Below, piece by piece: positions 8,975 through 62,209 of a stretch of DNA of 64,000 bases. Position 1 is the first letter of the stretch. Every line of letters begins with the position of its first letter. The DNA comes from a virus (lineage: Duplodnaviria; Heunggongvirae; Uroviricota; Caudoviricetes): the IMG/VR virus record IMGVR_UViG_3300006217_000002. The stretch is one strand, 5' to 3'. The translations under genes and the position numbers were made by a program. Under the pieces are notes generated by a model that saw only the letters and a program-made list of their open reading frames with translations, did no database searches and had not been told where the DNA came from.

Positions 8975-9895
8975 TTATGTATCACTCTCCTCCATATTTG
9001 ATAACGGTTTACCACTATCCATGCAATATTGAAGATCTGCCAGCGTTGCATAATACTTAGTCAATTCAGGAACAGATTCAGGATTAGCATTATTTTCAAT
9101 TGCATTTTTGATAAAATGAGAAGCCCACAATAATGATTTATATACGAGCTCCTGATGATCTTTATCTGCTTCAATATTTAGTAATTTATATCTTCCTAAT
9201 GGATTGAATCTGGTATTCCAACCATTCATCTCTTCATCACTCACTTCTGCCCAGTGAGTAACAGTACATCCCTTATCGATATTTTCTTTATTGGATAGAG
9301 GACTATAATCGAACAGAGGGAAAGGAGGAAGAATTTTCCAATTACCTTTTTCATCTATTGTTGCGATTTTCATATCTTCTGCTTCAAGAATTACGTCAAA
9401 CGTTTCTCCATATGTTTTATTAGGATCTACGAATCTTATGGCGACGGGTTTATCTATTGGAGCAGGAGTTTCATTTACATCAATCCATGTATATGGAGAC
9501 TTCTCAGATGTCAATATACCTGAAACTTTTTGTTTATCCAATGGAGGAAGACTTTTAAGTTTCTCCTCGATTTCTTCAGGTTTATATCTTCCTTCAGTAA
9601 CTAACAGCCATGATACAGGAGGAATGAGATCTTTTAGATCTCTTGGGTTAACTCTGTAGTCTCCATTTGGTAATCTCGTTATAACACTTAATTGTTCCAT
9701 AACAGACATAAGCTGGCCAATAGTATCATCTGTTAGAAACGGATGCCATAACTTCATCATTGATACAGTAACAACTGGTTTGCTTATTGTCTTAAATATT
9801 GCATCAGCTATAATCTTTTTGCTTCCCTGATCAACATTTGGTAACATATCTACAGACTCCTGAATAGGTTGATTAATTTTAGCCATTTTATTCAT
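8975..9895 (-). CDS. Hypothetical protein whose N-terminus (MAKINQPIQESVDM) is shared with the prohead protease gene
   Basis: 306-aa ORF; 45-bp exact match to 36666..36710. Confidence 0.7.
   Translation of the reverse strand: MNKMAKINQPIQESVDMLPNVDQGSKKIIADAIFKTISKPVVTVSMMKLWHPFLTDDTIGQLMSVMEQLSVITRLPNGDYRVNPRDLKDLIPPVSWLLVTEGRYKPEEIEEKLKSLPPLDKQKVSGILTSEKSPYTWIDVNETPAPIDKPVAIRFVDPNKTYGETFDVILEAEDMKIATIDEKGNWKILPPFPLFDYSPLSNKENIDKGCTVTHWAEVSDEEMNGWNTRFNPLGRYKLLNIEADKDHQELVYKSLLWASHFIKNAIENNANPESVPELTKYYATLADLQYCMDSGKPLSNMEESDT
9843..9887 (-). repeat. 45-bp exact dispersed repeat (inverted copy at 36666..36710)
   Basis: AATGGCTAAAATTAATCAACCTATTCAGGAGTCTGTAGATATGTT in both genes, same reading frame. 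Confidence 0.9.
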
Positions 9896-10170
9896 TCCTC
9901 CTTATCCCAATTATCAAGCTCTACATCAAACCCACAAGCTCTCAATATTTTAGATGAATGCTTATAGTTATTCCCGTAAAATGTATGAGTCGATAAATAA
10001 ACATCTAAATTTTGAATTTGTCTCATATAGCTTTTCTTTTTCGTGTAAGGTTTTTTATTCTTAGCTCTTAACCATCCGCAACAATTATCAGTATCTACTT
10101 CAAGTATATGAGTTTTTGATTCATTTGGAATTTCAGATAATTCTTTCCAATCTTTTATAAAAGTACTCAT
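9892..10170 (-). CDS. Hypothetical phage protein
   Basis: 92-aa ORF with AAGGAG SD, overlapping the next start. Confidence 0.7.
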   Translation of the reverse strand: MSTFIKDWKELSEIPNESKTHILEVDTDNCCGWLRAKNKKPYTKKKSYMRQIQNLDVYLSTHTFYGNNYKHSSKILRACGFDVELDNWDKEE

Positions 10171-10189
10171 TAATAATCTCCTTATAAAA

Positions 10190-10225
10190 ATAAATGATAG
10201 CGGAAATCATTCCGCTATCATTTAT
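10190..10225. terminator. Hairpin terminator
   Basis: ATAAATGATAGCGGAA-ATCA-TTCCGCTATCATTTAT. Confidence 0.75.
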
Positions 10226-10246
10226 CGATTACTGATACTTATTTAA

Positions 10247-10789
10247 TTAACGATAGTTGATACCGTTATATGCATCGAACTGGGACATGATATCTCCACG
10301 TTCTCTGTTATTCTCCCAAGCCTCTCTCTGGTTGATTCTCTTAACAACCTGCTTGGATACTTTAGCGAATCTCGGAAGCGCCTGTTTCAAAGTGATGAAC
10401 ATCTTAGTATCATCAGCGTCTCCTCCAAGTTTAACGCTGTAGAACTGGATCTGATTTACAAGCTCAAGCAACTCATTTGCTTTGATCTCGTAAGGATTAA
10501 TCCATTTTCCAGTATCAGGATCTTTCTTAATAACCAGCGGCTTGATAGGGAATGAAGCACCGCAGATTGTACATTTCCAGTTACCCGGTCTCTCAGGATC
10601 ATGTATAACTGTAGGGGTCTCACCCTTCTTCCTGATAATCCAGTGAACACAGGTCTTCTTTACTTTCTTGATGACCTTTTTGTTCTTGGACTTAAACTTA
10701 TATCTATCACCTTTCTTCTTCACAAGATCGGTGATTCCTTCCATAAGACGCCTGGTCTCTTTCTCTACTTTTACTTTCTTCTTAGCCAT
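10247..10789 (-). CDS. Basic protein with probable Zn site (CxH...CxxC)
   Basis: TCVHW and KCTICG; Lys-rich N-terminus; AAGGAGG SD. Confidence 0.65.
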   Translation of the reverse strand: MAKKKVKVEKETRRLMEGITDLVKKKGDRYKFKSKNKKVIKKVKKTCVHWIIRKKGETPTVIHDPERPGNWKCTICGASFPIKPLVIKKDPDTGKWINPYEIKANELLELVNQIQFYSVKLGGDADDTKMFITLKQALPRFAKVSKQVVKRINQREAWENNRERGDIMSQFDAYNGINYR

Positions 10790-10810
10790 GATTTAAGTAC
10801 CCTCCTTATA

Positions 10811-11824: not shown

Positions 11825-11939
11825 AAATACTTCCTCCTAAATTGTGGATTATTTGTTGTTTTAACTTTTACAGTTATATGGATTATCACATATTATGGGC
11901 AATAATATATCAGTGATACTTTTATAGAATATATCATTT

Positions 11940-17532: not shown

Positions 17533-17646
17533 TTTATCTTTCCTCCTAATATTTTATTTTTTTGAATATTAATTGATAAAGTTAAAAGCTAATTGACTTA
17601 TCAAACACCACCATCCTAAAAATATTTTATTGTCAATCTTACTATC

Positions 17647-21136: not shown

Positions 21137-21739
21137 ATGTTAAATATTCAGGTATTAGGTAATGGACTTATTCCAAGGGGGTTAGGTCTTGCTCCTCGTT
21201 TAGAACCGTTTCCGGCAGATTATATATTAATTTGCACGATCATGCAGACTCGTGGGTTAGAAGTTAAAATGGTAAATCCTGATGATGGTAAATTAATTAA
21301 GCTTACTCCTCACAATGTGAAACGTATGTGGGATAAATATGGAAAAAGAACTCCTGCTAAGAGCAGAGTTATTGAAGTAAATATGCCTCCACAAAAAGAG
21401 GAAGAGAAGAAAGAACCCCAGATCTATGCTCCGATGAATCAGAAACCTGATCAGGTAAAAGAGGTTCCTAAGGATGTAATTCACGATGCTGTTAAAAATG
21501 CAGCTTCTACTGTATTTGATAAAGCACCTGAATCTGCTGCTCATGTTGTTCCTGAACAGAAAGTTGAAACTACTGTATCAGATGAAAAGTCTGAGGAGGA
21601 ACCTGCTGAAACAGGTACAGAAGATACTGCAGCACCGGAGAAAAAAGAGGAAGAGAAGAAAGAACCCCAGAATGATAACAAGAATAACAATGGAAAGAAC
21701 CAGGGGTTCAAGCCTATCAATAATCCTAAACAGAAATAA
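21137..21739 (+). CDS. Hypothetical protein with low-complexity mosaic C-terminus
   Basis: 200-aa ORF with SD; contains 30-bp internal duplication and 50-bp patch shared with 50807..50856. Confidence 0.7.
   Translation: MLNIQVLGNGLIPRGLGLAPRLEPFPADYILICTIMQTRGLEVKMVNPDDGKLIKLTPHNVKRMWDKYGKRTPAKSRVIEVNMPPQKEEEKKEPQIYAPMNQKPDQVKEVPKDVIHDAVKNAASTVFDKAPESAAHVVPEQKVETTVSDEKSEEEPAETGTEDTAAPEKKEEEKKEPQNDNKNNNGKNQGFKPINNPKQK
21393..21422 (+). repeat. 30-bp exact direct repeat (second copy 21642..21671)
   Basis: AAAAAGAGGAAGAGAAGAAAGAACCCCAGA (KEEEKKEPQ). Confidence 0.85.
21582..21631 (+). repeat. 50-bp dispersed repeat, 49/50 identical to 50807..50856
   Basis: ATGAAAAGTCTGAGGAG(G/A)AACCTGCTGAAACAGGTACAGAAGATACTGCA; EKSEE(E/K)PAETGTEDTA in both proteins. 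Confidence 0.9.
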
Positions 21740-24507: not shown

Positions 24508-24543
24508 TATTGGGAGCTCACTGTGAGCTCCCAATATTTTTTT
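24508..24543 (+). terminator. Intrinsic terminator
   Basis: TATTGGGAGCTCAC-T-GTGAGCTCCCAATA + T tail. Confidence 0.8.
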
Positions 24544-24546
24544 ATT

Positions 24547-24556
24547 TATATATTAT
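24547..24556 (+). promoter_or_regulatory. Putative early promoter TATATATTAT
   Basis: Recurrent motif upstream of ppk. Confidence 0.6.
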
Positions 24557-24594
24557 TATTTAGAATAAATAATGTTACAGTTAGGAGGATTATT

Positions 24595-26340
24595 ATGAAA
24601 CAAATATCTTTTATTCAAAGTTTAGTTGAGTTTAATAGGAGAGTATTGTATCAAGGAACTCCAGATAAAGATAGAGAATATTCGATGACGGAGATTGCAA
24701 ACTTATTATTTTTCAATGAAGTTTTTCTCAGTAATATGAAAGAAATTTTCTCTAAGTATAATACTAAAAATATTCTTGAGAAGTATGTAGATTTATTATC
24801 ACAATATATTAGTAATATTAAATTTATTCAAAGTCTTGTATCAGTATTAAATCCTGTATTAGTATTCGACAAAGATGATAGTTTCGAAAGAAGATTTGCT
24901 ATGGAATCATCATTAAGTAATATAATTATTGATCAGCATTTTCCTCTGGATAAGCCAATTAATTTTAAATTTGACAGTGATCAATTATATTATGTAAGTA
25001 TATTAGATGAGAAATATCTTGTTATATCATTTATAGATAAAAAGATGAATATCTATAACGAACCTATGGGATGTATATTTAAAGATCACAAATCTTATTG
25101 GAAAACTGATGAATGTATACGAGATTATATCAAGAATAAATATCAGACATTAGACACTGTAGCAATTAGTGTTACGACTTCAGAAAAGAATCCATATATT
25201 GTTACAAAGGTTGAATATAATGGTAATAAAGAAACTATGAAAGTCATAGCAGGATTATTTCATGGAGCTCCAATAATCAGCAATAGATTCATCTATACTA
25301 AAGATATCAAACAAATTATATCATCTAATAACAATGAGCAACCTGTTATATCTAAACAAAAATTTGAGAAAATTAGTCTGAGTAATTATATAAAGAATGA
25401 CGATCTCATAGAGTATCCAAGAGATTCATTTGAGGAATATCTTCATCTATTAAAATCTGCAGCTACCAGTAATGCAGTTGAATCAATATATTTAACTTTA
25501 TATAGAATAGGTACAAATCCTTCTATATTCTATATATTGAGGGAAGCTGTAAATAATGGTAAAGATGTTCGAGTTAATATTGAACTTTGTGCTTCTGGTG
25601 AATATATAAATGAGATGTGGATGTCTGAAATGAAAAGAGTTGGAATTAAAGTAACTACGTATGCATATAATACTTTGAAAGTGCATTCTAAGTTGACTTT
25701 AATTAAGTTTTCCAATGGTAGAAGGATATCTCAAATTGGTACAGGTAATTACAATTATACTACTACTTCTCAATATACTGATTTATCATTGGTAACTAGT
25801 AATGATGATATATGTGATCAAGTAGAAAAAGTATTTAAAATGTTTGATGGACATGATGTATCGTTCAATAAAAATTTACTTGTCACTAGATACAATGCTA
25901 GGAGTGAGTTAGTAAGATTAATAGATGAAGAAGCTGATAAAGGTATTGATGGATTCATATCTATTAAGTGTAATTCATTGGATGATTATGAAATAATCAA
26001 TCATCTTGATTTAGCTGCTAAAATGGGATGTACTATTGATCTTATCATTCGTGGTGTATGTACATGGATTCCAGAACAATTAGGGGTTAATGTAACTATT
26101 AAATCCGTTATATGGGACAAGTTAGAACACTCACGTGTATATTGTTTTAATAGGTACAATCCATCTATTTACATTGGATCTCTTGATCTTACTACTAAGA
26201 AAATTGAAAAAAGAATCGAAACGATGGTAAAGATTAACGATCCAGAAATAATGATAAAAATATGTAGATATCTAAATAGATATATTAACAATGGTGATGG
26301 ATGGTTATTAACATCAACTGGAGACTATGTTAAGGAGTGA
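24595..26340 (+). CDS. ppk1: Polyphosphate kinase 1 (divergent)
   Basis: EFNRRVL, YPRDSF, IYLTLYR, KVHSKL, GTGNYN, KCNSL.D, LIIRGVC, LEHSRVY, YIGS.D..KRIE; start moved to ATG24595 (AGGAGG SD). Confidence 0.85.
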   Translation: MKQISFIQSLVEFNRRVLYQGTPDKDREYSMTEIANLLFFNEVFLSNMKEIFSKYNTKNILEKYVDLLSQYISNIKFIQSLVSVLNPVLVFDKDDSFERRFAMESSLSNIIIDQHFPLDKPINFKFDSDQLYYVSILDEKYLVISFIDKKMNIYNEPMGCIFKDHKSYWKTDECIRDYIKNKYQTLDTVAISVTTSEKNPYIVTKVEYNGNKETMKVIAGLFHGAPIISNRFIYTKDIKQIISSNNNEQPVISKQKFEKISLSNYIKNDDLIEYPRDSFEEYLHLLKSAATSNAVESIYLTLYRIGTNPSIFYILREAVNNGKDVRVNIELCASGEYINEMWMSEMKRVGIKVTTYAYNTLKVHSKLTLIKFSNGRRISQIGTGNYNYTTTSQYTDLSLVTSNDDICDQVEKVFKMFDGHDVSFNKNLLVTRYNARSELVRLIDEEADKGIDGFISIKCNSLDDYEIINHLDLAAKMGCTIDLIIRGVCTWIPEQLGVNVTIKSVIWDKLEHSRVYCFNRYNPSIYIGSLDLTTKKIEKRIETMVKINDPEIMIKICRYLNRYINNGDGWLLTSTGDYVKE

Positions 26341-28296: not shown

Positions 28297-28322
28297 TTAT
28301 ATATTATAAAAATATAGAAAGG
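28297..28322 (+). promoter_or_regulatory. Putative early promoter + SD cassette, 26 bp identical to 37008..37033
   Basis: TTATATATTATAAAAATATAGAAAGG. Confidence 0.7.
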
Positions 28323-28331: not shown

Positions 28332-31319
28332 ATGGTTAAGACTCTCCGTTCTCTAATACAAGAGAAGTTCCCAATGGAGTTGAGAGTAAAGATCGAATTA
28401 TTATCAAAAAGAAGAGACATCACGAACAAAGAGAAACAGGATGAACTCTTCAAGTTATTGAGAGAATATGAAATTGAAAACATAGTTCCATTGGGACCTG
28501 GGACGAACAGGTATGCGTTCAAGTTGAATGGTTTTGTCATTAAGGTTGCAACAGACCATGATGGGAAGATTGACAATTTGAAAGAATTTAAAATGGCGAA
28601 ACGGTTGTATCCGTATGTGACAAAAACATATGAAGTTTCTGAGAATGGAACTTTATTAGTTGCGGAGTATATACAGCCTTTCTCGTCATATGGAGAAATG
28701 CTTAATTATGCGGATAAAATCAGAGAAATACTGACTAAACTATCGTCAGTTTATTTGATAGGAGACGTTGGAATCACATCCAAGAATTTTGCGAACTGGG
28801 GATTGAGGATAGGAGGAACTGAACCTGTCTGTCTAGATTTTGCATATGTTTATGAAGTGTCATCAGAACTATTCATATGTAAACATTGTAAGAGCGGTTC
28901 AATGTTAGTTCCGAATAAGGATTTTACTGAGTTAGTATGTCCACAACCAGGATGTGGTAAGAAGTATTTGTTTGAAGATATTCGCAGTAAAATTGGTAAT
29001 GATATTCATCGGCATGAGATTGGCGATCTCACTGAAGAGGGATACTTATTATCAGAATCAAACGTAGTTACTGAACTTAGTACTGGTAGAAGTAATTATC
29101 TTGTTAGGAAAATGAAGCCTTCTAGCAAGAAACCTATACAGGAAAAGAAGGAGGAAATTGTTCTTGATAACTTTGTGATGGAACATGAACCTTCATATTA
29201 CAATGGGATCAATGGTAATTCAAAATATTTTAAGGAGGACGTTAAGATGGCAAATATGGATTTATTGCGTGAGGCAGCAGCTGATGTTGCAAAGAGAAGT
29301 TCTGATGGAGGGTTAGTAATTCGTGCGAAAGCAACCCTCGTCAATAAGAAACCTAGAAGGGAGCAGCGTCATGATGTAAGAGCAACACCGCCGGCTGAAG
29401 AAGTCACGGTGGACCAACTAGTTGAAGAGACTTTAGATCAAGCCGAAGAATCCACCCTGGCTTTCTCTGCATCTATGAGCGAACCTGAAAAATCTGTGGC
29501 TCCGGTTGAAGAAGTAAAGGTTCAGTCGGAAGAGAAACCTACCATGGAAACTGTAATGAAACCGGAAGTTCTTCCTGAAACTGTTGTCATCCGTGCAACG
29601 GCTACAACACATGTTAGCAAAGCTCCTAAGGTCACTGAGGAAAAGATGGAATCTGTACATCCCGCTAAGGAAGTAGAGAAACCAGTAGAGCAGAAACCGG
29701 AGGAGTTGAAAGCACCTGTAGAGGAATCGATGTTCAGCAGAGATTTCAAAGATCATGTTGACAAAGTATTCAGTATTGTTTCAAATAAGGTTGGAACGGA
29801 TCTTCATATAAGAGCTGTATTCGATGATGTTAAGGGAAATATCAGAACAAAGAAGATGTTTCCTGAGCAGTTCTATAAAGGAGTGCAGAATGCTGTATTC
29901 AGATCATTAATGGCGTTCTGTAACTTCGAGGAGAAAAATATCCCTAATGATAACAATAAGGGATACCATAAGTCGTTTACTCCTCCTACAGAGCTGGAAG
30001 GTATGGCGTATACACCTACGATGATATTTATGTCAAGGGTATGGGCTGATAAATCTCTATGCAACATGGAGAACCCTGAAGATATGATGAAAGCGTACCG
30101 CGATAAGTTCTCTGATTATGATGGATTCCAGCCTGAATGGATCGAGATTTTCAAGAATCGCTTGAGGGGTAAAATCCAGATCGATGAGAGTGGTTTATGT
30201 AAGGTGGCCGATGCAGTTAGTGAAGTATGGGTAATGAGGTTTACTGAGAGCAGTAACGATGAATCAAAGGAACCTCAGGAACCTACTACGGAGGAAGTAA
30301 CAGTTCAGGCTGAGGAAACCACTGCAGAACAGCCCGTTGAAGAAACATTCGATGAAGGAGAAGAATCTAACATTCCTTCTGATACCACTGGTTCATCTCT
30401 TCCTGATCTTTCAGGTTCTTATTCGATGGATGGAAACAGAGAAGAAGCTTCTGAATTTGATGAGCATGGTAACTATACTGGTGAAGAAGATGATACTAGA
30501 TTTCTCAGTGTAGAGATTTATCCTGACGATGATGTTGATGTCGTTAAGGTAAAATCATCTGAGGCATTCGGAGATGTTTCTATTCCGTTCTATACTAAGC
30601 TGAGCGATATCGATCTCTCTAAGAATGTTCCATCTGTTGCCGATGACAGAAATGGTATCTGGGACTGGTTGATTCATATGGTTCCTGATATTATGTTCTA
30701 TACACAGAATCCTGAGAGATACCTCGAGATTAATGAATATGATATCGAGGAAGATCAAACACATGTTGTTATCCTTAATGAGAACGAAGGTACGTACATC
30801 ATGGGTATTTATTTCATTGAAGGAATCTGGATAGTTGATGACAATGGTGATGGACATCAGGTAACAGATAAGGATTTATTGGCGAGACTCAATGAACTGA
30901 TCAAGGAAGACATCGGATACTCAAGGATGAGCCATTTAGAAAGATCTCTGACTATGAAAGAACTTATTAGAACAGAGGAGTCTATTCTGGAAAATATGGT
31001 ACAGGAGGTAAGTGATGAAATGGAATCTACGGAGGAAGTAACAGTTCAGGCTGAGGAAACCACTGCAGAACAGCCCGTTGAAGAAACATTCGATGAAGAA
31101 GTGGAAAGAAAAAGAGAAGCAGAAGTTGGAGGTCTCGAAGAAGCCGCTATTGCTGCATTAACTGGACAGGATCGTGAAGATGACAATGGAGAAAACAAAG
31201 AAATTGACAGATATGAATCATATGTAAACAATGATCCTAAGTTGGCAAAGCTGACAGAAGAAAGAGTACAGACTTTTGCTCCTATCAGAAGAAACAAGCA
31301 GCGTGATCGTGAAAGGTAA
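28332..31319 (+). CDS. Protein-kinase-like domain + Zn ribbon + long acidic region
   Basis: Gly loop LGPGTNR, VIKVA, NLKE, LVAEYI, catalytic GDVGITSKNFANWG, CLDFA; CKHC/CPQPGC; in-frame internal AAGGAGG-ATG at 29247. Confidence 0.75.
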   Translation: MVKTLRSLIQEKFPMELRVKIELLSKRRDITNKEKQDELFKLLREYEIENIVPLGPGTNRYAFKLNGFVIKVATDHDGKIDNLKEFKMAKRLYPYVTKTYEVSENGTLLVAEYIQPFSSYGEMLNYADKIREILTKLSSVYLIGDVGITSKNFANWGLRIGGTEPVCLDFAYVYEVSSELFICKHCKSGSMLVPNKDFTELVCPQPGCGKKYLFEDIRSKIGNDIHRHEIGDLTEEGYLLSESNVVTELSTGRSNYLVRKMKPSSKKPIQEKKEEIVLDNFVMEHEPSYYNGINGNSKYFKEDVKMANMDLLREAAADVAKRSSDGGLVIRAKATLVNKKPRREQRHDVRATPPAEEVTVDQLVEETLDQAEESTLAFSASMSEPEKSVAPVEEVKVQSEEKPTMETVMKPEVLPETVVIRATATTHVSKAPKVTEEKMESVHPAKEVEKPVEQKPEELKAPVEESMFSRDFKDHVDKVFSIVSNKVGTDLHIRAVFDDVKGNIRTKKMFPEQFYKGVQNAVFRSLMAFCNFEEKNIPNDNNKGYHKSFTPPTELEGMAYTPTMIFMSRVWADKSLCNMENPEDMMKAYRDKFSDYDGFQPEWIEIFKNRLRGKIQIDESGLCKVADAVSEVWVMRFTESSNDESKEPQEPTTEEVTVQAEETTAEQPVEETFDEGEESNIPSDTTGSSLPDLSGSYSMDGNREEASEFDEHGNYTGEEDDTRFLSVEIYPDDDVDVVKVKSSEAFGDVSIPFYTKLSDIDLSKNVPSVADDRNGIWDWLIHMVPDIMFYTQNPERYLEINEYDIEEDQTHVVILNENEGTYIMGIYFIEGIWIVDDNGDGHQVTDKDLLARLNELIKEDIGYSRMSHLERSLTMKELIRTEESILENMVQEVSDEMESTEEVTVQAEETTAEQPVEETFDEEVERKREAEVGGLEEAAIAALTGQDREDDNGENKEIDRYESYVNNDPKLAKLTEERVQTFAPIRRNKQRDRER
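30286..30357 (+). repeat. 72-bp exact direct repeat (second copy 31027..31098)
   Basis: Encodes TEEVTVQAEETTAEQPVEETFDE twice in the same protein. Confidence 0.9.
31112..31135 (+). repeat. 24-bp exact dispersed repeat (copy at 40385..40408)
   Basis: AAGAGAAGCAGAAGTTGGAGGTCT; REAEVGGL in both proteins. Confidence 0.8.
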
Positions 31320-36096: not shown

Positions 36097-36957
36097 ATGC
36101 CATGTGAAGCACTTGATACATTGTGTTATATTCAGGAACAAACTTCCTATATGGAAGACTATGGAAACGATTTTGGATACGAGGTCCATGATAAAGGGAA
36201 TAGATTTTATGTAACATTCAATGCAGTTCTGCAATCATTTGGACGCAAGAATCGTAATGGACGTGAATATGATGCTGAAAATATTATGAACAAAATAAAC
36301 ACAGATGACTATATTCAATCCATGCTTCGTCAGAATAGTTGGATGGGAGAGATTGATCACCCTGCACCTGAAAAAGAAGGCGAAGAGCTTACAATGCAAA
36401 GAATTGCTAATCCTAATATGAAATTGACTTCTCACTATATTAGGAGACCAACTCTGAATGGTACATTGCTTGAGGCTGGAATTCAAACAGACTCATCTAA
36501 CAAACATGGAATGAATATGGCAATTAAAATTGTTGATGGTAAGATCATTCCATGCTTCAGTGCCAGAGTTCTTGGAGCTTTACAGAACAGGAATGGTAGA
36601 GCTGTTGTATTTGTTCGTAAACTTATCACCTATGATTGGGTACTATATCCTTCTCATCCTGAAGCAATGGCTAAAATTAATCAACCTATTCAGGAGTCTG
36701 TAGATATGTTTACTAAACATACTGGATGTAAGATTATTCAATTCCCTGAATTAGCAAGGATGGCTGCAAATTCATCAAAGGAAACTGAATGGTTGTGCGA
36801 ATCATTTGGATTGACTATTGATGCTGTAACAGGATTAACTGAAACAGGATCAGGAATTGTAATTCAGGAAAGCAACAATGTTTACGTTCAGCCCATTACA
36901 GATAAAAGCATTCGTAAGAGAACTCAGTCTATGTTAACTGACTGGCTTAATAGCTAA
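36097..36957 (+). CDS. Prohead core protease (T4 gp21/phiKZ gp175-like)
   Basis: NRNGREY, MGEIDHP (catalytic His), FSARVLG (catalytic Ser region), ITYDWV.YPSH. Confidence 0.85.
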   Translation: MPCEALDTLCYIQEQTSYMEDYGNDFGYEVHDKGNRFYVTFNAVLQSFGRKNRNGREYDAENIMNKINTDDYIQSMLRQNSWMGEIDHPAPEKEGEELTMQRIANPNMKLTSHYIRRPTLNGTLLEAGIQTDSSNKHGMNMAIKIVDGKIIPCFSARVLGALQNRNGRAVVFVRKLITYDWVLYPSHPEAMAKINQPIQESVDMFTKHTGCKIIQFPELARMAANSSKETEWLCESFGLTIDAVTGLTETGSGIVIQESNNVYVQPITDKSIRKRTQSMLTDWLNS

Positions 36958-37007: not shown

Positions 37008-37033
37008 TTATATATTATAAAAATATAGAAAGG
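37008..37033 (+). promoter_or_regulatory. Putative early promoter + SD cassette (identical to 28297..28322)
   Basis: TTATATATTATAAAAATATAGAAAGG. Confidence 0.7.
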
Positions 37034-39971: not shown

Positions 39972-42515
39972 ATGAATGAAAAGAAATTTGACATCTTAAC
40001 AGACGTCGATATCACAAATCGCATTCACGAAATGGTACGTGAAGGATCAAAGTTAAAAAATGAAATATTCAAGTCTGTAATCATGATGAAAGATCTTGAT
40101 AAAAAAGTTATTCAGCTTTATCTTGGTTATGTTAATAGCTTTTTAAAATATTGGGATGAATATTCATCAACATTACAGGAAGAAATGAAAACATCTAACG
40201 GAGTAGAAGGAGTTAGAAGTATTTCATATGAAAGAGTCAGAGACTATGTATATGCCAAAAATGACTATGCTTCAGTGCTAGAGTTTGTTGACGGCTTGAT
40301 TAAACTTGTGGAAAGTGGTAAGTGCGAATCAATTGAAGATATTGAAGACTTCATGGATCATACATTATCGAAAGCATTTCCTTCAAGAGAAGCAGAAGTT
40401 GGAGGTCTTCTTGATAATGTACTGAATACTGGTAAAGATGGATTTATGGTTATAACTGATAAATCAGCAGCGTCTAAATATAATACCACTAAGTCTTACA
40501 ATATCTTTGACAGAAGAGAAAGAAGTGTATTATATAAAGCCGTTGAAAAGACTATTGATTTCATGACATATGATATCAATAAACATCGTTACCCTCTATC
40601 TAAAGATATGAAGGTATTTGTATCTATTGTAAATAATGTTGTCGAATATATTAATTATTCTCTGGCAGCATATGCTACAAGAATCTATATGGTTGCTAAA
40701 TATGCATATCCATTCATATTTGCAAATGTTAAAAATGATAATGCCATTGAAGCGAGATATGAATCTGCAATCAATAAAGATACAGATCAGAGCAATACAG
40801 AAACTACAATTTCTATATTTAGTACTCTTGATGAAACTGTAAGTAGAGATTTTACAAAGTTCAAAGAGTTCGAAGATGCATTTGATACATTTTTAAAAGC
40901 TATTGGGATTGAGAATTTGTATAACTCCAATGATGATAGATGTAAATATAGAAGATTGGAAGATAAAGCTATGCAATCTAATGTATTTGCATCTCAACTC
41001 ATCGGCAATGAATTGTATGAATTCTTTATCAAGATGCGTCATTATGATTACTTTGACGGAGTATATCAGTCAAGAGCTGCTGAAATGAATATGATTCTAA
41101 AGAGTTTGATATACAACAACGTACAAGCAATTCAAGGAACTTCAACAAACAAACAGAGTATACTTTATGTTATAAGAGATACAGTTCCGAAACAGGAAAC
41201 TCTTGAAAGTTATAAGGAAACAATTAGAGATTTTGCTGTATTCTCTATAAATCTTTTATATACAATAAAGGATACTGTTGAGAGATTTATTGGAACTAGA
41301 TCTGAAGAAAAAGATTATCCAAGATACAATGTAACTACTTCCAATATTATTTCAGAGAATCTCAAGATTGTTGGCGATTTCTATAGAGATATAGCAACGG
41401 CTTTATTATTCAGAGCTAGAGACTTTGAAATGAAGATCAACGAATTGAGAAATGCTGAGATTGAGAAGACTTTCTCTTCCCTTCAGATTAAGGTACTCGG
41501 GGGAGATAAATCAGATTTAAGTCCAAATGATAACAATATGTCTTCTGTTCCTGATACAACAAGAATGCCTACTGAGTTAATGGATATTTATTCATCGCCT
41601 ACATTCGAATATCTTCAGATGTTAGATGAATATACTATGTATGAGTATGGACTTGAAAATGACCCATACTATGCAGTAGGTTATTATTCAGAAGCATTAT
41701 CTATCTCTCAGATATTCAATACAATAATTTCAACGTTAACTGCCGTTAAGAAGAAATTTGATGTATTTTTTAATAACCAAAGTTTTACTCGTGCGTATAA
41801 CTGGGTTAAAGAGCATCAAAATACTCTTAGTCAAATGCAGTTCAATGGAGCTATGAGTGTTCTTCCATATGCAAAAGATATCAACATTAAACACATTGAT
41901 ACCATCATTAGTTGTATAAATGCATTTAATGAGAAAGACGTTGAAACACCAGAAGCAATGAATAATTTCATCAAAAAATTATATACGATAGATAACAAAT
42001 CCATTCAGGATTTGTTTGATTCTGAAAAGGTAGATGAAAAGACAGCGGGTGTACTGTATACAAACTTTGTATTATTTGATAAGGATCCTCTTGATAAGAG
42101 TAATACTACTGTCAATCCTATAACACTTGATACAAGTGATAAGATCAAAGAGCAGCTTGTTAATTGGATTGATAATGTAGCAAATGCTGATGCTACTCAT
42201 AAAGGATTACTTGATACAAGTAAACGTATTGAACAGGCTACGAATTCTTTAAAAACTAAAGTAGTCAATATCCAAAATAATCTTGGTAAGAATAGTACTC
42301 AACAGGCTCCACCTCTTAATGGATCTGAATCAGAGAAGCAGGATAATAACAAAGTTAATATCGGTGACGATAAACAATCATCGCTTGACAAACTTTTATT
42401 ACAAATCTCAGTTGCTACAAACAAGATGTGGGATGGATTATATTATCCGATAACAAAAGCTCTGAAAGATCAGTATCAGTATATCAAAGAGGCATATTCT
42501 CTTGGTCGTAAATAA
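39972..42515 (+). CDS. Large probable internal head protein
   Basis: RYES and YYSEA sites followed by amphipathic helix (ISQIFNTIISTLTAVKKKFDVFF); late-type motif at 39923. Confidence 0.5.
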   Translation: MNEKKFDILTDVDITNRIHEMVREGSKLKNEIFKSVIMMKDLDKKVIQLYLGYVNSFLKYWDEYSSTLQEEMKTSNGVEGVRSISYERVRDYVYAKNDYASVLEFVDGLIKLVESGKCESIEDIEDFMDHTLSKAFPSREAEVGGLLDNVLNTGKDGFMVITDKSAASKYNTTKSYNIFDRRERSVLYKAVEKTIDFMTYDINKHRYPLSKDMKVFVSIVNNVVEYINYSLAAYATRIYMVAKYAYPFIFANVKNDNAIEARYESAINKDTDQSNTETTISIFSTLDETVSRDFTKFKEFEDAFDTFLKAIGIENLYNSNDDRCKYRRLEDKAMQSNVFASQLIGNELYEFFIKMRHYDYFDGVYQSRAAEMNMILKSLIYNNVQAIQGTSTNKQSILYVIRDTVPKQETLESYKETIRDFAVFSINLLYTIKDTVERFIGTRSEEKDYPRYNVTTSNIISENLKIVGDFYRDIATALLFRARDFEMKINELRNAEIEKTFSSLQIKVLGGDKSDLSPNDNNMSSVPDTTRMPTELMDIYSSPTFEYLQMLDEYTMYEYGLENDPYYAVGYYSEALSISQIFNTIISTLTAVKKKFDVFFNNQSFTRAYNWVKEHQNTLSQMQFNGAMSVLPYAKDINIKHIDTIISCINAFNEKDVETPEAMNNFIKKLYTIDNKSIQDLFDSEKVDEKTAGVLYTNFVLFDKDPLDKSNTTVNPITLDTSDKIKEQLVNWIDNVANADATHKGLLDTSKRIEQATNSLKTKVVNIQNNLGKNSTQQAPPLNGSESEKQDNNKVNIGDDKQSSLDKLLLQISVATNKMWDGLYYPITKALKDQYQYIKEAYSLGRK

Positions 42516-42614: not shown

Positions 42615-44003
42615 ATGGCATTTGAAGATATATATAAAAGTCTATTAGAAGATGAAAACAACTTCTTCAATAGCCAAGACTTTGGGGATGATTATCAAGG
42701 AGCAGATGAAGGAGAAGATTTCTTAACTAGTAAAGAAATAGTTAAGATGAAAGAGCATCCTGAAACTAATCCTGGAATACAGCTTCCTCCTGGTCCCGTT
42801 GAGATAGAAGAAACATTTGGATATTTTAAGAGATATAATACTCGTAGAGAGCATAAATATACAGAAACTGAAATGAAAGAAATAAGAGAGTCATGTGTTC
42901 ACACAATAGTTCATGACTATAGTGAACATGACGAATATCATATGAGTGATGAAGAACGAGCTCGTAATGATTCTCTTCAAGAGTTAAATTTGAAACTCGG
43001 ATCTCTTAAAAGAATCTATAGAAAAGTAGATCAGTACATTGAAGCAATGAGAGTAGTAGTTGAAGCATGGGAACTTCTTGAAAAGAAAGAAAACTATCTA
43101 CATTCATCAGACGAATTCTTCAGCTTGGTATCATGCGGAAAGATTTATCATAATAGAATTCCTATGCCTAAATTAAAAGGAATGGATAAATATAACATAG
43201 ACATGATTATCAAATATATATCTAATCCTGAATTAGATCCTAAGGATCTTGTACCTATTAAAGAAGAGAAGAGAGATCCTTGGTACGATCAATTCTTAGC
43301 TGAAGAAGATGGAGATTATGAATCAGAAGAAGAAATGATGGAAAGATTGTTATCACCAGAAGAAGTGGAATATATTCTTCATAATGCTGATAATCCTCCT
43401 GCGTTCAGAGTTAAAGATATCAAAGGTAAATACATTAAGGGATACGATGTACGATCATTCGGCAGATCTAATAAAAAGAAGATGAAGAAGAAAGAGAGAT
43501 ATATAGCTGATGGCCTTCATGATATATTAAATAAGATTCAAAGTAATCCAAATAATAGAGGACAAAATAACGAAAGAAGCTATCTAGTAACTAATAGTTT
43601 ATTTGAGCCTCCTAAGAAGGAAAAGAATGTCTGGGATGAAATGAGATTTGAAGGATCTTGGGCTGATGACGACGCCGTATTCTTATACGATATTGCTGTA
43701 AGAGAAGAGTTAATGAAAGAACTCACTCCTGGTAATGCTTATGTAACTTATGCCGATAGAGAGTTGCAGAAGTTCTTTAAGACATTAGAGGAAAATGGAG
43801 TAAACGTTATAGAGCTTCGTCGTAAAATGAATATGTCAGACGAGAAAGCTAAAGCTGCTGAGACTAAGAAAGAGAGGAAAGAAAATAGAAAAATTGAATC
43901 TGCTATCCTACAAAGGATCAGTAAGCTTAATGAAAGCCCTAAATTTAAGAAAATGGTAGCTAAGGCTGAAGCAGCGATAAATGAACAGATCAAAGAATAT
44001 TAA
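42615..44003 (+). CDS. Hypothetical charged helical protein
   Basis: 462-aa ORF. Confidence 0.7.
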   Translation: MAFEDIYKSLLEDENNFFNSQDFGDDYQGADEGEDFLTSKEIVKMKEHPETNPGIQLPPGPVEIEETFGYFKRYNTRREHKYTETEMKEIRESCVHTIVHDYSEHDEYHMSDEERARNDSLQELNLKLGSLKRIYRKVDQYIEAMRVVVEAWELLEKKENYLHSSDEFFSLVSCGKIYHNRIPMPKLKGMDKYNIDMIIKYISNPELDPKDLVPIKEEKRDPWYDQFLAEEDGDYESEEEMMERLLSPEEVEYILHNADNPPAFRVKDIKGKYIKGYDVRSFGRSNKKKMKKKERYIADGLHDILNKIQSNPNNRGQNNERSYLVTNSLFEPPKKEKNVWDEMRFEGSWADDDAVFLYDIAVREELMKELTPGNAYVTYADRELQKFFKTLEENGVNVIELRRKMNMSDEKAKAAETKKERKENRKIESAILQRISKLNESPKFKKMVAKAEAAINEQIKEY

Positions 44004-49878: not shown

Positions 49879-51060
49879 ATGCTTAATGGAATCAAAGCTA
49901 TGATTAATGAGAAAAAAGAATTTACTGAGGCTGCTGATCTCTTATTAGAAGAAACATCTCTCATCGGTAAATTAGATGATAGTATCGTTTTAGGAGAAGC
50001 TGCTGATGACGAACCGGAAGAGAAGCCTGAACAGGATGAAGAGAAAAAAGAAGAACCTGAAGCTACAGGTGAAGAAAATGATGATGAAGGAGAAGAGCCT
50101 AAAGAAGTTGAAGATATCGAAAATGCTCCAATTGAGGATGAACCTGTAGCTGCAGGAAGTAATGAAAACGATATTCTCAATGCTCCTATTGATGGTTCTG
50201 ACGAAACTCCGATGAATCTTCCTGGGGATGATCTTCCTACTCCTGTTGGAAAACAAACTGGAGAGCCAATTGAAGATGCAGATATTTTATCTACAGAGAT
50301 CGATCTTGGATCTAATACAATGAAAGATGTGTTGCCTGTTCCTCCTGGAAATGCACCTGAAGCTGTAAATGATGATGTATTGAATCAGAGAATCGATGAC
50401 GGATTCGGTGGTGGTGAGGAACCTGGTCCTAGTACTGAGGAGAATCCGGACAATCCTCTTGGCTCTCCTACAGAACCAATCCCTGAACCTGAGCAGAAAC
50501 CTGCAGAGGAAAGCGGAAGTGATCCTGAGGAGCCATTAGGTGATGATCCTGAATTTGAATCAACATTGTTTGCCGGATTAGAGAATCTTGATGAATCAAC
50601 TAAGAAAACCATCATGGATCGTTTAAAGAAAAAGAATTGTGATGACGATTGTAAAGATGGGAAAGATTGCAAGAAGAAATGTGAAGATCATAAAGATTCT
50701 GATGGAGATGGCAAATGTGATAAGTGTGATGAGAAAATGGTAGAGGGATACATCACTATGTCAGATGATGACGAACCATTCACAGAAGAGATTCTTATGA
50801 GCGGAAATGAAAAGTCTGAGGAGAAACCTGCTGAAACAGGTACAGAAGATACTGCATCTGTAGAAGAACCAACCGAGGAACCTGTTGCAGAAGACAGTCC
50901 TGTTACTGCCGCTGTAAAAGATAAAGTAGCAGAAACAGAAGCTCCGCTTGAAGCAGAAACTCCCGAAGGAGATATCAAAGATACGCTAATGAAAAAACTC
51001 GCTTCTATGACTAAAAGTATGGAAGATGTAAAACTTCAGGTATCCAAATTAGCTCAGTAA
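49879..51060 (+). CDS. Highly acidic probable head/scaffold protein with Cys-rich segment
   Basis: Start ATG49879 (AAGGAG SD); FTEA, LGEA, FES sites; CDDDCKDGKDCKKKCEDHKDSDGDGKCDKC; directly upstream of portal. Confidence 0.55.
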   Translation: MLNGIKAMINEKKEFTEAADLLLEETSLIGKLDDSIVLGEAADDEPEEKPEQDEEKKEEPEATGEENDDEGEEPKEVEDIENAPIEDEPVAAGSNENDILNAPIDGSDETPMNLPGDDLPTPVGKQTGEPIEDADILSTEIDLGSNTMKDVLPVPPGNAPEAVNDDVLNQRIDDGFGGGEEPGPSTEENPDNPLGSPTEPIPEPEQKPAEESGSDPEEPLGDDPEFESTLFAGLENLDESTKKTIMDRLKKKNCDDDCKDGKDCKKKCEDHKDSDGDGKCDKCDEKMVEGYITMSDDDEPFTEEILMSGNEKSEEKPAETGTEDTASVEEPTEEPVAEDSPVTAAVKDKVAETEAPLEAETPEGDIKDTLMKKLASMTKSMEDVKLQVSKLAQ

Positions 51061-56969: not shown

Positions 56970-58472
56970 ATGGATATGTTATTAGAATCTACTTTAAACT
57001 TAGATCCATTTAAGTCCTTAAATAACTTTATGTTTGAAGAGTTTGATCCAGTTGAATTCTTCAAATGTGATGGATTTAATGATATTATCATGGAAGCTAC
57101 AGATGGTGCAACTAAGAAGAACATCTTCTCTAGACTGATAAACATGATTGCAAAGGCTGGAGAATGGATTAAAGAACGTATCAAAAACTTAGTTCTTGGT
57201 ATTAAAAAATTAGCAGCTGGGAGAGCTAAAACTTCAAATCAAATATTGAGAGAAGTTGGTGTAAAGAAACATGCTGTAAAGAGAGATGCAGCAGACCCAA
57301 ATGATCCTAATACTCCGATAGATGCTGCAGAGTCTTTATATTCTAGCTTTATAGAAGGATTTGCAGCAGATGGAATTATGATTAATATAGCTGCATTAGT
57401 AGCTGCAGATGTTCAAAAAGCTCCTATTAAAGGAAAAGAAATATATGCAGGAGGTGCTAGAGCATCGCAGGTTATAGGATTAATATTAGATCCTAGACCT
57501 ATAGATGAATATATTGATCTATTTAAAAGATTAACAAAAGAGTTTGGAATTAGAAATGTTAAAGCTGCAGATATAGATAGATTAAATAAACTATGTGAAG
57601 ACTTTTCAGGCAGGCCTTCAGCTCTTGATTATGCAGCAGATGCAATTAACCAAAAAGTTCGTAAGAAATATGAACTTGTAAGAATTAGTATTGATGAGTT
57701 ATTACAATTTCAAATTAAAGTTGATGAAATGTGTAAATTAACCGAAGAATTTGATAACCAATTCAAAGCTTTAAATATAAACCTTGGAGACAAAGGCAAT
57801 GCAGCAGGATTGATTAGAAAACATTATATGGATATTCTCAACAATCTAGCTTGGGTATGTGTTAATTTGCAAGGAGGTCTACATGCTATTGCAAATGGTA
57901 TGCAGGGAATATATCATGTAGATCCTGGTTATTGGAATTCTATCAATGATCCAAACCAGTTAGCAAAATTTGTTGAAGAATGTATGAAAACCGGTATGCC
58001 TGGTAAATACATTGTAAATAATATCTACCATGTGTGTGATGAATCTCTAAAAGGAAATCCTAATATTGAAAAACCTATTATGGGATTCGGCAGACTTACT
58101 CTTATTCCTAAAGGGGATATAATCTATAAAGTTGCTATAAATAGATATGGTGTGCGTAGTAATAAAAACGATTATAGGGTAATGGATGCTGTAAAAGGAA
58201 AACCTATAGAAAGTATGTTTGCTTTTACAACTAAAACATATGGTGATTATACTATCAACGTAATGGAGAAAGTTCAGGCTGGTAAAGAAAATGAACCTAC
58301 TCCTATGGAAGCTAGTGAACTCGGTAAAAAAATTAATCAAGAATTAGAGAAAGATGGAGTTGGATTTAGTATCTATGATATTAAAGCCGATGCATTTGGC
58401 AAAAAGAATGGTAAATTTGTAATTCTTGATTACGGATATTTACAAAGAAGAAATTATAATGCACAAAAATAA
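56970..58472 (+). CDS. Head-protein leader fused to C-terminal protein-kinase-like domain
   Basis: LLES/IMEA + amphipathic helix; C-terminus MGFGR, IYKVA, SNKND, VMEKV, YDIKADAFG, ILDYG. Confidence 0.65.
   Translation: MDMLLESTLNLDPFKSLNNFMFEEFDPVEFFKCDGFNDIIMEATDGATKKNIFSRLINMIAKAGEWIKERIKNLVLGIKKLAAGRAKTSNQILREVGVKKHAVKRDAADPNDPNTPIDAAESLYSSFIEGFAADGIMINIAALVAADVQKAPIKGKEIYAGGARASQVIGLILDPRPIDEYIDLFKRLTKEFGIRNVKAADIDRLNKLCEDFSGRPSALDYAADAINQKVRKKYELVRISIDELLQFQIKVDEMCKLTEEFDNQFKALNINLGDKGNAAGLIRKHYMDILNNLAWVCVNLQGGLHAIANGMQGIYHVDPGYWNSINDPNQLAKFVEECMKTGMPGKYIVNNIYHVCDESLKGNPNIEKPIMGFGRLTLIPKGDIIYKVAINRYGVRSNKNDYRVMDAVKGKPIESMFAFTTKTYGDYTINVMEKVQAGKENEPTPMEASELGKKINQELEKDGVGFSIYDIKADAFGKKNGKFVILDYGYLQRRNYNAQK
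57084..57136 (+). repeat. 53-bp exact dispersed repeat (copy at 60902..60954)
   Basis: ATTATCATGGAAGCTACAGATGGTGCAACTAAGAAGAACATCTTCTCTAGACT (IIMEATDGATKKNIFSRL). Confidence 0.9.
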
Positions 58473-59389: not shown

Positions 59390-59394
59390 AATTC

Positions 59395-59422
59395 CAATGG
59401 TCGTGGGATCCCACGACCATTG
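59395..59422. terminator. Perfect 28-bp palindrome
   Basis: CAATGGTCGTGGGA|TCCCACGACCATTG. Confidence 0.7.
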
Positions 59423-59467
59423 ATCTATTCTATTACCTCTGGTTACATTTAATTAATTCGAAAGGAA

Positions 59468-60799
59468 GTGATAAAAATGTTACCTAATAATTATAGTGTA
59501 AACCCATCTCAAGCAAATCCTAATATTAAATTAGAAGGGGTTCAATTTGAAACTAATGTCGGTGCTAATTACGGTGAACATATTACAAATACAGGAGCAG
59601 TGTGTAATACATCAGCATCTCATACATATGGTAATGTGATGGCAGTTATTGAAAAATACGTACTTGATTTATTTAGGAATATTGATTTCAAAACAGTTAC
59701 TACAAGTACAACTCTTTCTAGTAGACAACTATCTCATCTACCATCTCAATTACAAAAGAAAGAGATGCCTATAATGGTATTAGTTCCAAGAATATCATTC
59801 GGTCAAGATGATAATAGATTCTTAGGTCATACAATAATGAATGATAATATAACTAATACACATTCATTTTGGGGAAATGGATCTTTATTAGAACTAGCTA
59901 AAGACCCAAGAAAAAATGTATATATTCATGGACATTACAACAGAGCAGTGATATATGTAGATGTTATCATGTCATTTAACACGTATGCAGAACAGACTAA
60001 TGTTGCATCTCAGTTATTCAATATGATAGGTATTGGTCATAATAGAACTATACGCGCTCCACTTGAATTATTTATCCCTAATGACTTCTGCTATCTAATT
60101 TCAAATATTACTGACATACCAATGAAAAGTGAAGATGGATCTGTATACGATTTCATGACTTATATGAATACTATATGGCATCATCCAATAACTTATAAAC
60201 TTAAAGGCGGATCTAATACTGATGAATTCTTTATGTATTATCTTGCCGATATTGATACAGTGTTACAAGATCCTCAGGCAGGAGCAGGCATAAAAGATGG
60301 GCAGATCAGAAGAGCATTTGACCTATCTTTTACCGTAAGATGTGATTTTAATACAATAAGTTATTTTACACTAAACTCTCCGAAAATAAAGAAGGATATT
60401 CATATTCCTAACAAAGACGATTTAGCAATAGTATCAATGTTCTCTGATGTTATTAATCTTGATGATTTTGCTTTACCGATTGGATGGTCTATTTTAAGTT
60501 GGCCAATATTTAAACTAGAGAAAGGAGAGAATACTATATCTATAGATTCTATCCTTAATCAATCATTAAGGCTTGTAATAGATCATCATTTAAAATTTGG
60601 CATTCCTATGGAAAGATTTATCAGAATAGAATTCCGCGAAAATGGTCAGATATTAAACAATGAGATGTATTACATTGATTGGAATCAGAGAATTTTAAAT
60701 ATAGTAAATCCAAACTATAGACGTACTTATAGATTATTGGTTACAGTATCACATGAATATGTGAATAATCTAATCAAGGATCTTTATAACCTTGAATAG
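59468..60799 (+). CDS. Probable virion structural (neck/tail-completion-like) protein
   Basis: Beta-rich 443-aa ORF among structural genes; late-type motif at 59444. Confidence 0.4.
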   Translation: MIKMLPNNYSVNPSQANPNIKLEGVQFETNVGANYGEHITNTGAVCNTSASHTYGNVMAVIEKYVLDLFRNIDFKTVTTSTTLSSRQLSHLPSQLQKKEMPIMVLVPRISFGQDDNRFLGHTIMNDNITNTHSFWGNGSLLELAKDPRKNVYIHGHYNRAVIYVDVIMSFNTYAEQTNVASQLFNMIGIGHNRTIRAPLELFIPNDFCYLISNITDIPMKSEDGSVYDFMTYMNTIWHHPITYKLKGGSNTDEFFMYYLADIDTVLQDPQAGAGIKDGQIRRAFDLSFTVRCDFNTISYFTLNSPKIKKDIHIPNKDDLAIVSMFSDVINLDDFALPIGWSILSWPIFKLEKGENTISIDSILNQSLRLVIDHHLKFGIPMERFIRIEFRENGQILNNEMYYIDWNQRILNIVNPNYRRTYRLLVTVSHEYVNNLIKDLYNLE

Positions 60800-60817
60800 G
60801 AAAGGAGGAATGACATC

Positions 60818-62209
60818 GTGAACGACGGAATTTTCAGTCTTAATATTTGGGGATATGATGATATCACGGAACTCATATCTGAGTCTGTAGATATAAATCC
60901 AATTATCATGGAAGCTACAGATGGTGCAACTAAGAAGAACATCTTCTCTAGACTCATCAGTCTTTTGAAACGTTTATATAGGATCATAAAAGCTAAAATG
61001 TCTGAGGTAACTTCATCTTTTGTGTCTATATTTAAAACTAAAAAAGTTGATGATAAAACCTTAGATCAGATTGCTGAATACGTTCTAGGAGAAGTTGAAG
61101 ATGTACCTACTAGCAAACATCTTCGTTTCAGATATGAAGATGATAAGAGAATTACAATAAACTACATTGCAAATACAGTTAAAAAGTTTATTAAAGAACC
61201 TGATGTACCTGGTCATGATCCAAAAGATAGGCCATATCAATATGCAATACTATTAGTATTTCATCTTATTAAGAAACCATATCTTCTTGATCCTGTTATC
61301 GAAATGCTTGATGATATAAGTACCAATAGCGGAAATATAACATTTCCTGTTGCAAGAATGAAAGAATCATTAAATGCAATATGGGCTGGTACATCGCTTG
61401 GTTTAAGTTGTAACATATCATTAGAAGAATGGACTGCATTGAATAATAAAATAGTGGCACTTAATAAGAAAATGGAGACTGTAGACGATGAAACATTTGA
61501 TAGAATAAATATTGATGATAACGGCAATGGTTTAACTAAAGATTGGGCGAAAATTTTTAATGAACTCACTTCGTTAACTGCATTCTTACAAAAAGGAATA
61601 AATTCTATTGGAGATGGAATGCGTCAAATATATACTCTTGATGATAAATTTCATAATAGAATTAATGCAAACAATTTCAAGGATACTCTTCCAAAATTTG
61701 TAAAAATGTGTGTTGAGTATAATATTCCAAGTAAATATATTCATTATGCCGTTAGACAGATATGTGATATTTCTATCAATTCAGATATTAAAAATCCAAA
61801 TGTTAAAGCAGATGATGAAGCTTATCTAAAAGGAAACGGAAGATTTGTTATATTCCCAAGTGACCAGTCACTTTCAGGGAAAATCATAAAAGTTGCATAT
61901 AATGGACTAGGAGTAAGAGGTAATCGTAGTGAGTTCATTGTATGGAACAAGGTAAAAGATATTCCTGAAATAGCAGATGAATTATATTATATTTATGATA
62001 TAGGAGATGAAGAAAACTATGTAATTGTAACTGATAGAGCAACTCCTATTGATAAATATGATAAATGTACAGAATGGAACAATCGGATGAAACAGCTCTG
62101 TATAGACAATAACGTAGGTTTCATTATAAGATGTAATGACGGAGGTTTTGGTGAATTAAACGGAAAGGTAATATGTATTGACTATGGAAATGTTCATAGA
62201 ATAAACTAG
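60818..62209 (+). CDS. Paralog of 56970..58472: head-protein leader + kinase-like (possibly pseudokinase) domain
   Basis: ISES/IMEA leader; KGNGR, IIKVAY, GNRSE, IRCNDGGFG (catalytic Asp position apparently Arg), CIDYG. Confidence 0.65.
   Translation: MNDGIFSLNIWGYDDITELISESVDINPIIMEATDGATKKNIFSRLISLLKRLYRIIKAKMSEVTSSFVSIFKTKKVDDKTLDQIAEYVLGEVEDVPTSKHLRFRYEDDKRITINYIANTVKKFIKEPDVPGHDPKDRPYQYAILLVFHLIKKPYLLDPVIEMLDDISTNSGNITFPVARMKESLNAIWAGTSLGLSCNISLEEWTALNNKIVALNKKMETVDDETFDRINIDDNGNGLTKDWAKIFNELTSLTAFLQKGINSIGDGMRQIYTLDDKFHNRINANNFKDTLPKFVKMCVEYNIPSKYIHYAVRQICDISINSDIKNPNVKADDEAYLKGNGRFVIFPSDQSLSGKIIKVAYNGLGVRGNRSEFIVWNKVKDIPEIADELYYIYDIGDEENYVIVTDRATPIDKYDKCTEWNNRMKQLCIDNNVGFIIRCNDGGFGELNGKVICIDYGNVHRIN

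Follow-up and report, generated by a model that had tools for sequence, protein, structure and literature searches.

Phage mosaicism is usually described by genes and modules. In this work we analysed six pairs of short repeats, here called patches 1 to 6, in a stretch of phage DNA of 64,000 nucleotides (Caudoviricetes, IMG/VR record IMGVR_UViG_3300006217_000002; this whole stretch is referred to as the window), in which the unit of exchange appears to be 8–24 codons that pass, with the frame kept, from one gene to an unrelated one in a single genome. One of these tracts links a prohead protease gene, B, with the start of an unrelated gene, A.

Several described systems bear on such tracts. 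Phage recombinases act on diverged or very short homologies, lambda Red on genes that are 22% diverged and RecET on 5–13 base pairs (bp) (PMC2327257). In phage T4, a capsid-targeting sequence is carried by the internal proteins IPI, IPII, IPIII and Alt and is removed by the gp21 protease (PMC3012670; on capsid targeting see also Mullaney and Black 1996, as cited in PMC5694885). The SPN3US protease gp245, with the catalytic triad H77/S153/D178, cuts itself at AQE-203, 25 amino acids past D178 (PMC5694885), and this autocleavage takes off a C-terminal propeptide (PMC5694885, PMC10052503).

Six in-frame repeat pairs in the window

The six pairs listed in a first-pass annotation of this DNA are all present, five of them as exact copies and one with a single mismatch:

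Patch 1: 9843–9887 (-), the reverse complement of 36666–36710 (+); 45/45 identical; gene A and protease gene B
Patch 2: 57084–57136 (+) and 60902–60954 (+); 53/53 identical; genes E and F
Patch 3: 30286–30357 (+) and 31027–31098 (+); 72/72 identical; both in gene G
Patch 4: 31112–31135 (+) and 40385–40408 (+); 24/24 identical; genes G and H
Patch 5: 21582–21631 (+) and 50807–50856 (+); 49/50 identical; genes C and D
Patch 6: 21393–21422 (+) and 21642–21671 (+); 30/30 identical; both in gene C

The annotation had also claimed that paired copies share a reading frame, and this holds for every pair: the two copies are sense-strand segments of long open reading frames, share one codon phase and encode the same peptide. 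The tracts have sharp borders: displayed codon by codon, each pair drops at either end from 100% identity to random level within a single codon. The suggested comparison of the whole window with a codon-shuffled null gave seven repeats of at least 20 bp, against a mean of about one in 60 shuffles that kept each gene's codons and left intergenic sequence unshuffled. The only repeat of that length in the shuffles was an unshuffled intergenic 26-mer, and the longest repeat was 72 bp in the real sequence versus 26 bp in the null. A maximal-repeat search and a self-BLAST of the window recovered the same set of pairs, with intergenic perfect hairpins, one intergenic 26-mer and one mismatched 26-bp pair as the only extras.

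The clustering of patches is equally real, as the patch 5 copy at 21582–21631 ends 10 bp before the patch 6 copy at 21642–21671, and the patch 3 copy at 31027–31098 ends 13 bp before the patch 4 copy at 31112–31135. A selfish in-frame repeat family or a diversity-generating retroelement was also considered; the maximal repeats and the self-BLAST yielded six different sequences with two copies each, and neither a repeat family nor a mutational bias was seen in the window.

Donors, recipients and age of the patches

Proteins identical to those of the window occur on 31–35 contigs of up to 285 kilobases (kb) in three independent resources (JGI, ENA and Logan), and the window is therefore part of a gut-metagenome jumbo phage of about 285 kb. 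Its G+C content is 33%, and a megablast of the window against deposited phages gave no close match. It encodes split RNA-polymerase beta-type subunits, an SbcC-like nuclease, topoisomerase II, an NAD-dependent ligase, an anaerobic ribonucleotide reductase, an endolysin and virion structural proteins. The reference for most comparisons below is a complete 292-kb IMG/VR relative, G001, which is collinear with the window at 66–76% nucleotide identity.

Patch 1 involves the following features:

Gene B: 36097–36957 (+), 286 amino acids, prohead protease of the S80 (phiKZ gp175) family
Patch 1, donor copy: 36666–36710 (+), protease codons 191–205, containing the likely C-terminal autocleavage site IQE200/S (the slash marks the cut)
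Gene A: 8975–9886 (-), 303 amino acids from the second ATG, winged-helix-like N-domain and beta-rich C-domain
Patch 1, recipient copy: 9843–9887 (-), start codon and first 14 codons of gene A

The product of gene B matches the Pfam profile PF20034 (47.7 bits, cut-off 23.4) and the PHROG head maturation protease (1.9e-22), and its triad H88, S155, D180 is invariant in our alignment A1. E200 lies 20 amino acids past the catalytic D180, and the E200/S bond is thus probably the autocleavage site, being equivalent by position to that of gp245. For the protease, AlphaFold2 gave a model of unusable quality, with a mean predicted local distance difference test score (pLDDT) of 46.5. The patch 1 peptide, of core INQP-hydrophobic-[QM]-E-S-V, is kept in all IMG/VR relatives and in 120 of the 120 database relatives listed. 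These relatives encode it with other codons, only 23–35 of the 45 nucleotides being identical, and the 45/45 identity within the window's genome is therefore that of a copy and no sign of a constrained sequence. Between the protease of the window and the nearest one in the database, M204I is the only difference. Another protease, 89% identical to that of the window, was found in an NCBI bin labelled Roseburia. The phage may have a host among the Lachnospiraceae. The gene directly upstream of B (34037–36064) carries a complete DUF1963 domain as a fusion (Pfam E 7.8e-55).

For gene A the second ATG (9886) is the most likely start, this ATG being the first codon of the patch 1 tract: a Shine–Dalgarno sequence, AAGGAGG, lies 10 nucleotides before it, and the database form of the protein begins there. 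Homologues at 99% identity carry the full tag, those at 91–93% a tag that is three residues shorter with IQES kept, and those at 87–88% and below have no tag and an N-terminus of the form MA(V)DM. More distant homologues, of about 175–220 amino acids, consist of the C-terminal domain only, the winged-helix-like N-domain being confined to close relatives, and no counterpart of gene A was found in G001. Since the peptide is conserved in the protease and A homologues at 88% identity or less have no tag, the protease is the donor, gene A the recipient, and the event young; the homologue comparison in this way shows recent copying of patch 1 from the protease gene to gene A. As the inserted core agrees at its two ends with the ancestral start of A (MA..VDM), the simplest event is the insertion of a 27-bp core between two microhomologies, the ATGGCT- and GTAGATAT-type ends being the candidate microhomologies for a guided insertion at the gene A junctions. 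Strains are polymorphic at both edges of patch 1 (codon 2 of A is T or A, and protease residue 204 is I or M), which could be decay or renewed conversion. A back-conversion of protease M191 from the gene A start codon was ruled out, Met191 being present in 61 of the 120 relatives listed, and a window-specific conversion from A to B at residue 204 was weakened by the polymorphism of that position, at which most strain variants have Met.

Patch 2 links two paralogues:

Gene E: 56970–58472 (+), 500 amino acids, leader and kinase-like C-domain, PHROG 4301; patch 2 donor
Gene F: 60818–62209 (+), 463 amino acids, paralogue of E, PHROG 4301; patch 2 recipient
Patch 2, donor copy: 57084–57136 (+), E codons 39–56, candidate site IIME/A and the next 14 residues
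Patch 2, recipient copy: 60902–60954 (+), in the leader of F, with flanks at random level

Outside the patch E and F are about 23% identical (BLASTP). E orthologues at 73–81% identity carry nearly the same peptide (P0180 and P0182 share 14 of its 18 residues), and a hydrophobic-x-E-A site followed by KKN is kept in nearly all of the 38 E homologues listed. In G001 the F orthologue (60% overall identity) carries a distinct, F-type form of the motif, and the leaders of E and F there differ from each other. As the peptide is native in E orthologues and absent from F of G001, it follows that the E version overwrote the homologous leader/cleavage segment of F. The direction from E to F is shown by this comparison with a single F outgroup, as scans of viral contigs gave the G001 orthologue only and metagenome contigs gave none. 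The patch probably spans a leader cleavage site, and the overwriting of F by E implies no new function. A 14-bp match, from 60881–60894 (+) to protease positions 36694–36707 (encoding ESVD), lies in frame 7 bp before patch 2 and had been counted as one more adjacent piece. The match is exact but taken alone it is not significant, since the window holds 132 maximal repeats of at least 14 bp; the ISES part of it is ancestral, being present in the G001 orthologue of F. With its shared frame and its position beside patch 2, it is a possible member of the patch set.

The remaining patches lie in the following genes:

Gene C: 21137–21739, 200 amino acids, between RNA-polymerase subunit genes
Patch 5 in C: 21582–21631 (+), acidic tail of gene C
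Patch 5 in D: 50807–50856 (+), in gene D, an acidic protein directly upstream of a virion structural gene
Patch 6, copy 1: 21393–21422 (+), in gene C, Lys/Glu-rich
Patch 6, copy 2: 21642–21671 (+), in gene C, 10 bp past patch 5
Gene G: 28332–31319 (+), 995 amino acids, kinase-like N-domain and long acidic C-terminal part; holds three patch copies
Patch 3, copy 1: 30286–30357 (+), G residues 652–676, acidic linker
Patch 3, copy 2: 31027–31098 (+), G residues 899–923, acidic linker
Patch 4 in G: 31112–31135 (+), residues 927–935, 13 bp past patch 3
Patch 4 in H: 40385–40408 (+), H residues 138–146 (gene H 39972–42515, 847 amino acids)

The patches of C, D and G lie in segments that are predicted to be disordered and acidic, and the orthologues in G001–G005 have linkers at these places and none of the shared sequences. 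G orthologues are 888–927 amino acids long, with acidic linkers that cannot be aligned with those of G, and in one strain variant (P0136) the shared patch 3 peptide is one residue longer. Patch 4 is absent from G orthologues, and H orthologues have a loosely similar motif at its place, S-V-[GA]-A-L-[LV]-D, a weak indication that H may be the donor. At the mismatch of patch 5, the strain variants P0153 and P0154 of C have the D-type residue; the patch is unchanged in 10 of 10 strain variants of D, and the G001 orthologue of C has a different tail. Gene D (end 51060) probably starts at ATG 49879 and not at GTG 49804, the short form being that of the protein collection and matching the start of the G001 orthologue.

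Of the patch-bearing genes, C, D, F, G and H thus have G001 orthologues in which the shared sequences are absent, and A has no G001 counterpart. All strain variants carry the C/D, G and H patches, which are therefore older than the strain radiation and younger than the split from G001. The proposal that the copying is recent is in agreement with this lineage-specific distribution. As for the possibility that both copies of a pair are ancient and conserved, only donor copies proved to be ancient; ancient conserved motifs are ruled out by the orthologue comparison, and a functional nucleic-acid element is ruled out as the DNA is not conserved in relatives.

Origin of the patches and rival explanations

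We consider it probable that the patches arose by recent ectopic short-patch copying, through template switching or gene conversion, and that they survived only where in-frame changes are tolerated. Such a copying mechanism, which the first-pass annotation had put forward, is supported by the lineage specificity of the patches, by their sharp borders and by a direction that can be read for two pairs. Tracts of 24–72 bp would be copied non-reciprocally between sites of one phage genome, likely as a consequence of recombination-dependent replication, via template switching or short-patch gene conversion, for which a few bases of microhomology, or else diverged (homeologous) similarity, would serve as the guide. 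Insertions in genes that are out of frame or antisense would be lost, and in-frame ones would persist only in tolerant segments, namely a free N-terminus, leader and cleavage-site regions and acidic disordered linkers, so that the uniform frame would reflect which events survive. We infer the molecular mechanism from these features, and most patches would be neutral or nearly so. Classical homologous gene conversion does not account for the set, as A/B, C/D and G/H are non-homologous, with flanks at random level, and only E/F are paralogous; for these three pairs without flanking homology, microhomology-guided template switching fits better. The recipients C and G each hold two patches 10–13 bp apart, which suggests either compound switching or tolerant zones that are very narrow. 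In G001, every one of the 39 exact repeats of at least 22 bp whose two copies are both coding keeps sense orientation and frame, and most of them link paralogous domains.

Several observations sit less easily with copying followed by neutral survival. The region of the window has about three to four times more isolated patches per kb than G001. The mismatched 26-bp pair (60610–60635 and 43137–43162, one mismatch) joins two unrelated genes in different reading frames and may be a chance match or an out-of-frame patch, so that the statement that copies are always in frame is limited to exact tracts. Orthologues, which were expected to identify donor and recipient, did so for protease to A and for E to F; the directions of C/D, G/G and C/C cannot be read from them, and that of G/H is weak. 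The junction microhomology of gene A was read from protein sequences only, a scan of viral contigs with gene A and scans of metagenome and genome contigs having yielded no usable match. Finally, the adjacent patch pairs and the retention of IQE/S in the 93% relative could indicate selection instead of neutral scars.

The source sequence comes from metagenome assemblies, and the patches could in principle be assembly or consensus artefacts, or else ancient conserved motifs. The tracts are shorter than typical reads, however, the same proteins are found on up to 35 contigs from the three resources, and the orthologues show that recipient copies are not ancient, which makes this explanation barely conceivable. 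Import by recombination with co-infecting related phages, the identity within the genome being secondary, would fit the variation of strains in or near the patches (the polymorphisms of A codon 2 and protease residue 204 given above, and E/K in gene C) and the existence of one divergent protease variant, P0178. But paired copies in one genome match at synonymous sites where relatives use other codons, and import accounts neither for the internal duplicate in gene G nor for a non-homologous gene that begins with a protease segment; we regard it as highly improbable.

A more substantial rival is that the patches are selected functional modules, with short protease-site or capsid-targeting tags and linker motifs being distributed among virion proteins for their use, and gene A being a newly recruited, packaged and cleaved cargo comparable to proteins that carry the T4 capsid-targeting sequence. 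The A tag ends in a hydrophobic-x-E/S site that is conserved across the protease family, its 10 residues are similar in length to the T4 targeting tags (PMC5694885, PMC3012670), the 93% relative dropped three tag residues yet kept the IQES core, and the E/F patch spans a site kept in nearly all of the 38 homologues listed. Against this, four of the six patches have no convincing cleavage site, the tag is found on one protein only and its donor site is internal to the protease and not a leader, the gene A product looks like a winged-helix DNA-binding protein, and gene A lies in an early-type operon with topoisomerase II and DNA ligase genes. We judge this explanation unlikely. The description of the patches as often being protease-site or virion tags was in this respect overstated, as a credible hydrophobic-x-E/S or E/A site is present in two of the six pairs (protease/A and E/F). 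A stronger version, in which a capsid-loading cleavable leader was born on gene A within the last ~10% of divergence, making this winged-helix DNA-binding protein a new cargo to be packaged or ejected, and in which short-patch copying is the clade's routine way of re-tagging head proteins, seems to us decidedly unlikely.

The structure and the context of gene A are central to this question. Its AlphaFold2 model (mean pLDDT 76.8) has a winged-helix-like region at residues 20–110 and a beta-rich C-domain, the tag itself (residues 1–10) being disordered (pLDDT 38). Foldseek matches are weak (best E 4e-3), the top-ranked ones being mostly winged-helix regulators, and on the model gene A resembles a winged-helix DNA-binding protein. 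Pfam and PHROGs gave no assignment for A, C, G and H, and a sub-threshold CobT match only for D. Gene A is inside the topoisomerase–ligase operon, between a promoter motif at 17646 and a terminator at 8255–8285, with no earlier terminator. The motif is the 12-mer TTATATATTATA, with 11 occurrences against 4.8 expected when up to one mismatch is allowed. Several copies directly precede the nuclease gene, the topoisomerase operon, gene G and the genes for the polyphosphate kinase and the phosphatase, and of the structural genes examined none has a copy immediately upstream; the motif probably serves the phage polymerase as an early or middle promoter. Of the claim that copying can give new proteins a head-targeting or cleavage tag, the acquisition by gene A of a copy of the protease's likely autocleavage site stands; packaging and cleavage do not follow, given the early-type operon and the winged-helix-like fold, and the evidence leans against gene A being a head protein.

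A few other features were recorded. The 12-mer core is also found at 4390, 17646, 18529, 24546, 42564 and 62235, and it is contained in an exact 26-bp intergenic repeat at 28297–28322 and 37008–37033, the first copy of which is the promoter-like 26-mer ahead of gene G. Perfect palindromes of 28–38 bp lie between genes at 1152, 36964, 44830, 55417, 56868 and 59395 and are likely bidirectional terminator hairpins. The window encodes a polyphosphate kinase 1 homologue (24523–26340). In G001 (loci L035 and L039), a sequence of 58–117 bp is present three times, at ~106257–106422, 110605–110763 and 189657–189800, once inverted, and could be a mobile or structured-RNA element.

Comparison with described systems

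Copying within the window offers a concrete route by which viral proteins may gain short linear motifs, protease sites and linkers among them, with donor, recipient and approximate date readable for two events, and it provides one candidate origin for a tag of the capsid-targeting type. If the gene A tag is inert, the patches are a clean but ordinary record of recombination scars.

The likeness to the T4 capsid-targeting sequence is that gene A starts with 10 residues ending in IQE and followed by S, which has the form of a prohead protease site of the T4/S80 type, and that E and its paralogue F have in common a leader containing a hydrophobic-x-E site of this form. In contrast with T4, the tag is found in the window only on gene A and the protease, F sharing 14 bp at most, it derives from the protease's own, putative, internal autocleavage segment, and gene A is in an early-type DNA-metabolism operon. 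Judged by the features open to comparison, the case does not qualify as a capsid-targeting system. The protease itself resembles phiKZ gp175 and SPN3US gp245 in family, in triad spacing and in the presence of an x-x-E/S site 20–25 residues past the catalytic Asp, and the paralogues E and F recall the processed SPN3US head proteins gp53 and gp54, paralogues with N-terminal propeptides (PMC5694885, PMC10052503). It differs from these proteases in that residue P3 in the clade of the window is I, L, M or V, and not A, S or G, and in that the likely cleavage site is duplicated into a second gene.

With phage mosaicism and ectopic gene conversion the patches share non-reciprocal copying, identical and sharp-bordered tracts within diverged sequence, a recent and lineage-specific origin and a setting of phage recombination. 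The tracts of the window are far shorter (24–72 bp) and all lie within coding frames, most of them link non-homologous genes of one genome and not alleles or modules of different phages, and two recipients each hold two different patches 10–13 bp apart. The case described here is thus distinct from known ones in its scale, in the exchange between unrelated genes within one genome, and in having the protease's own likely cleavage segment as a donor.

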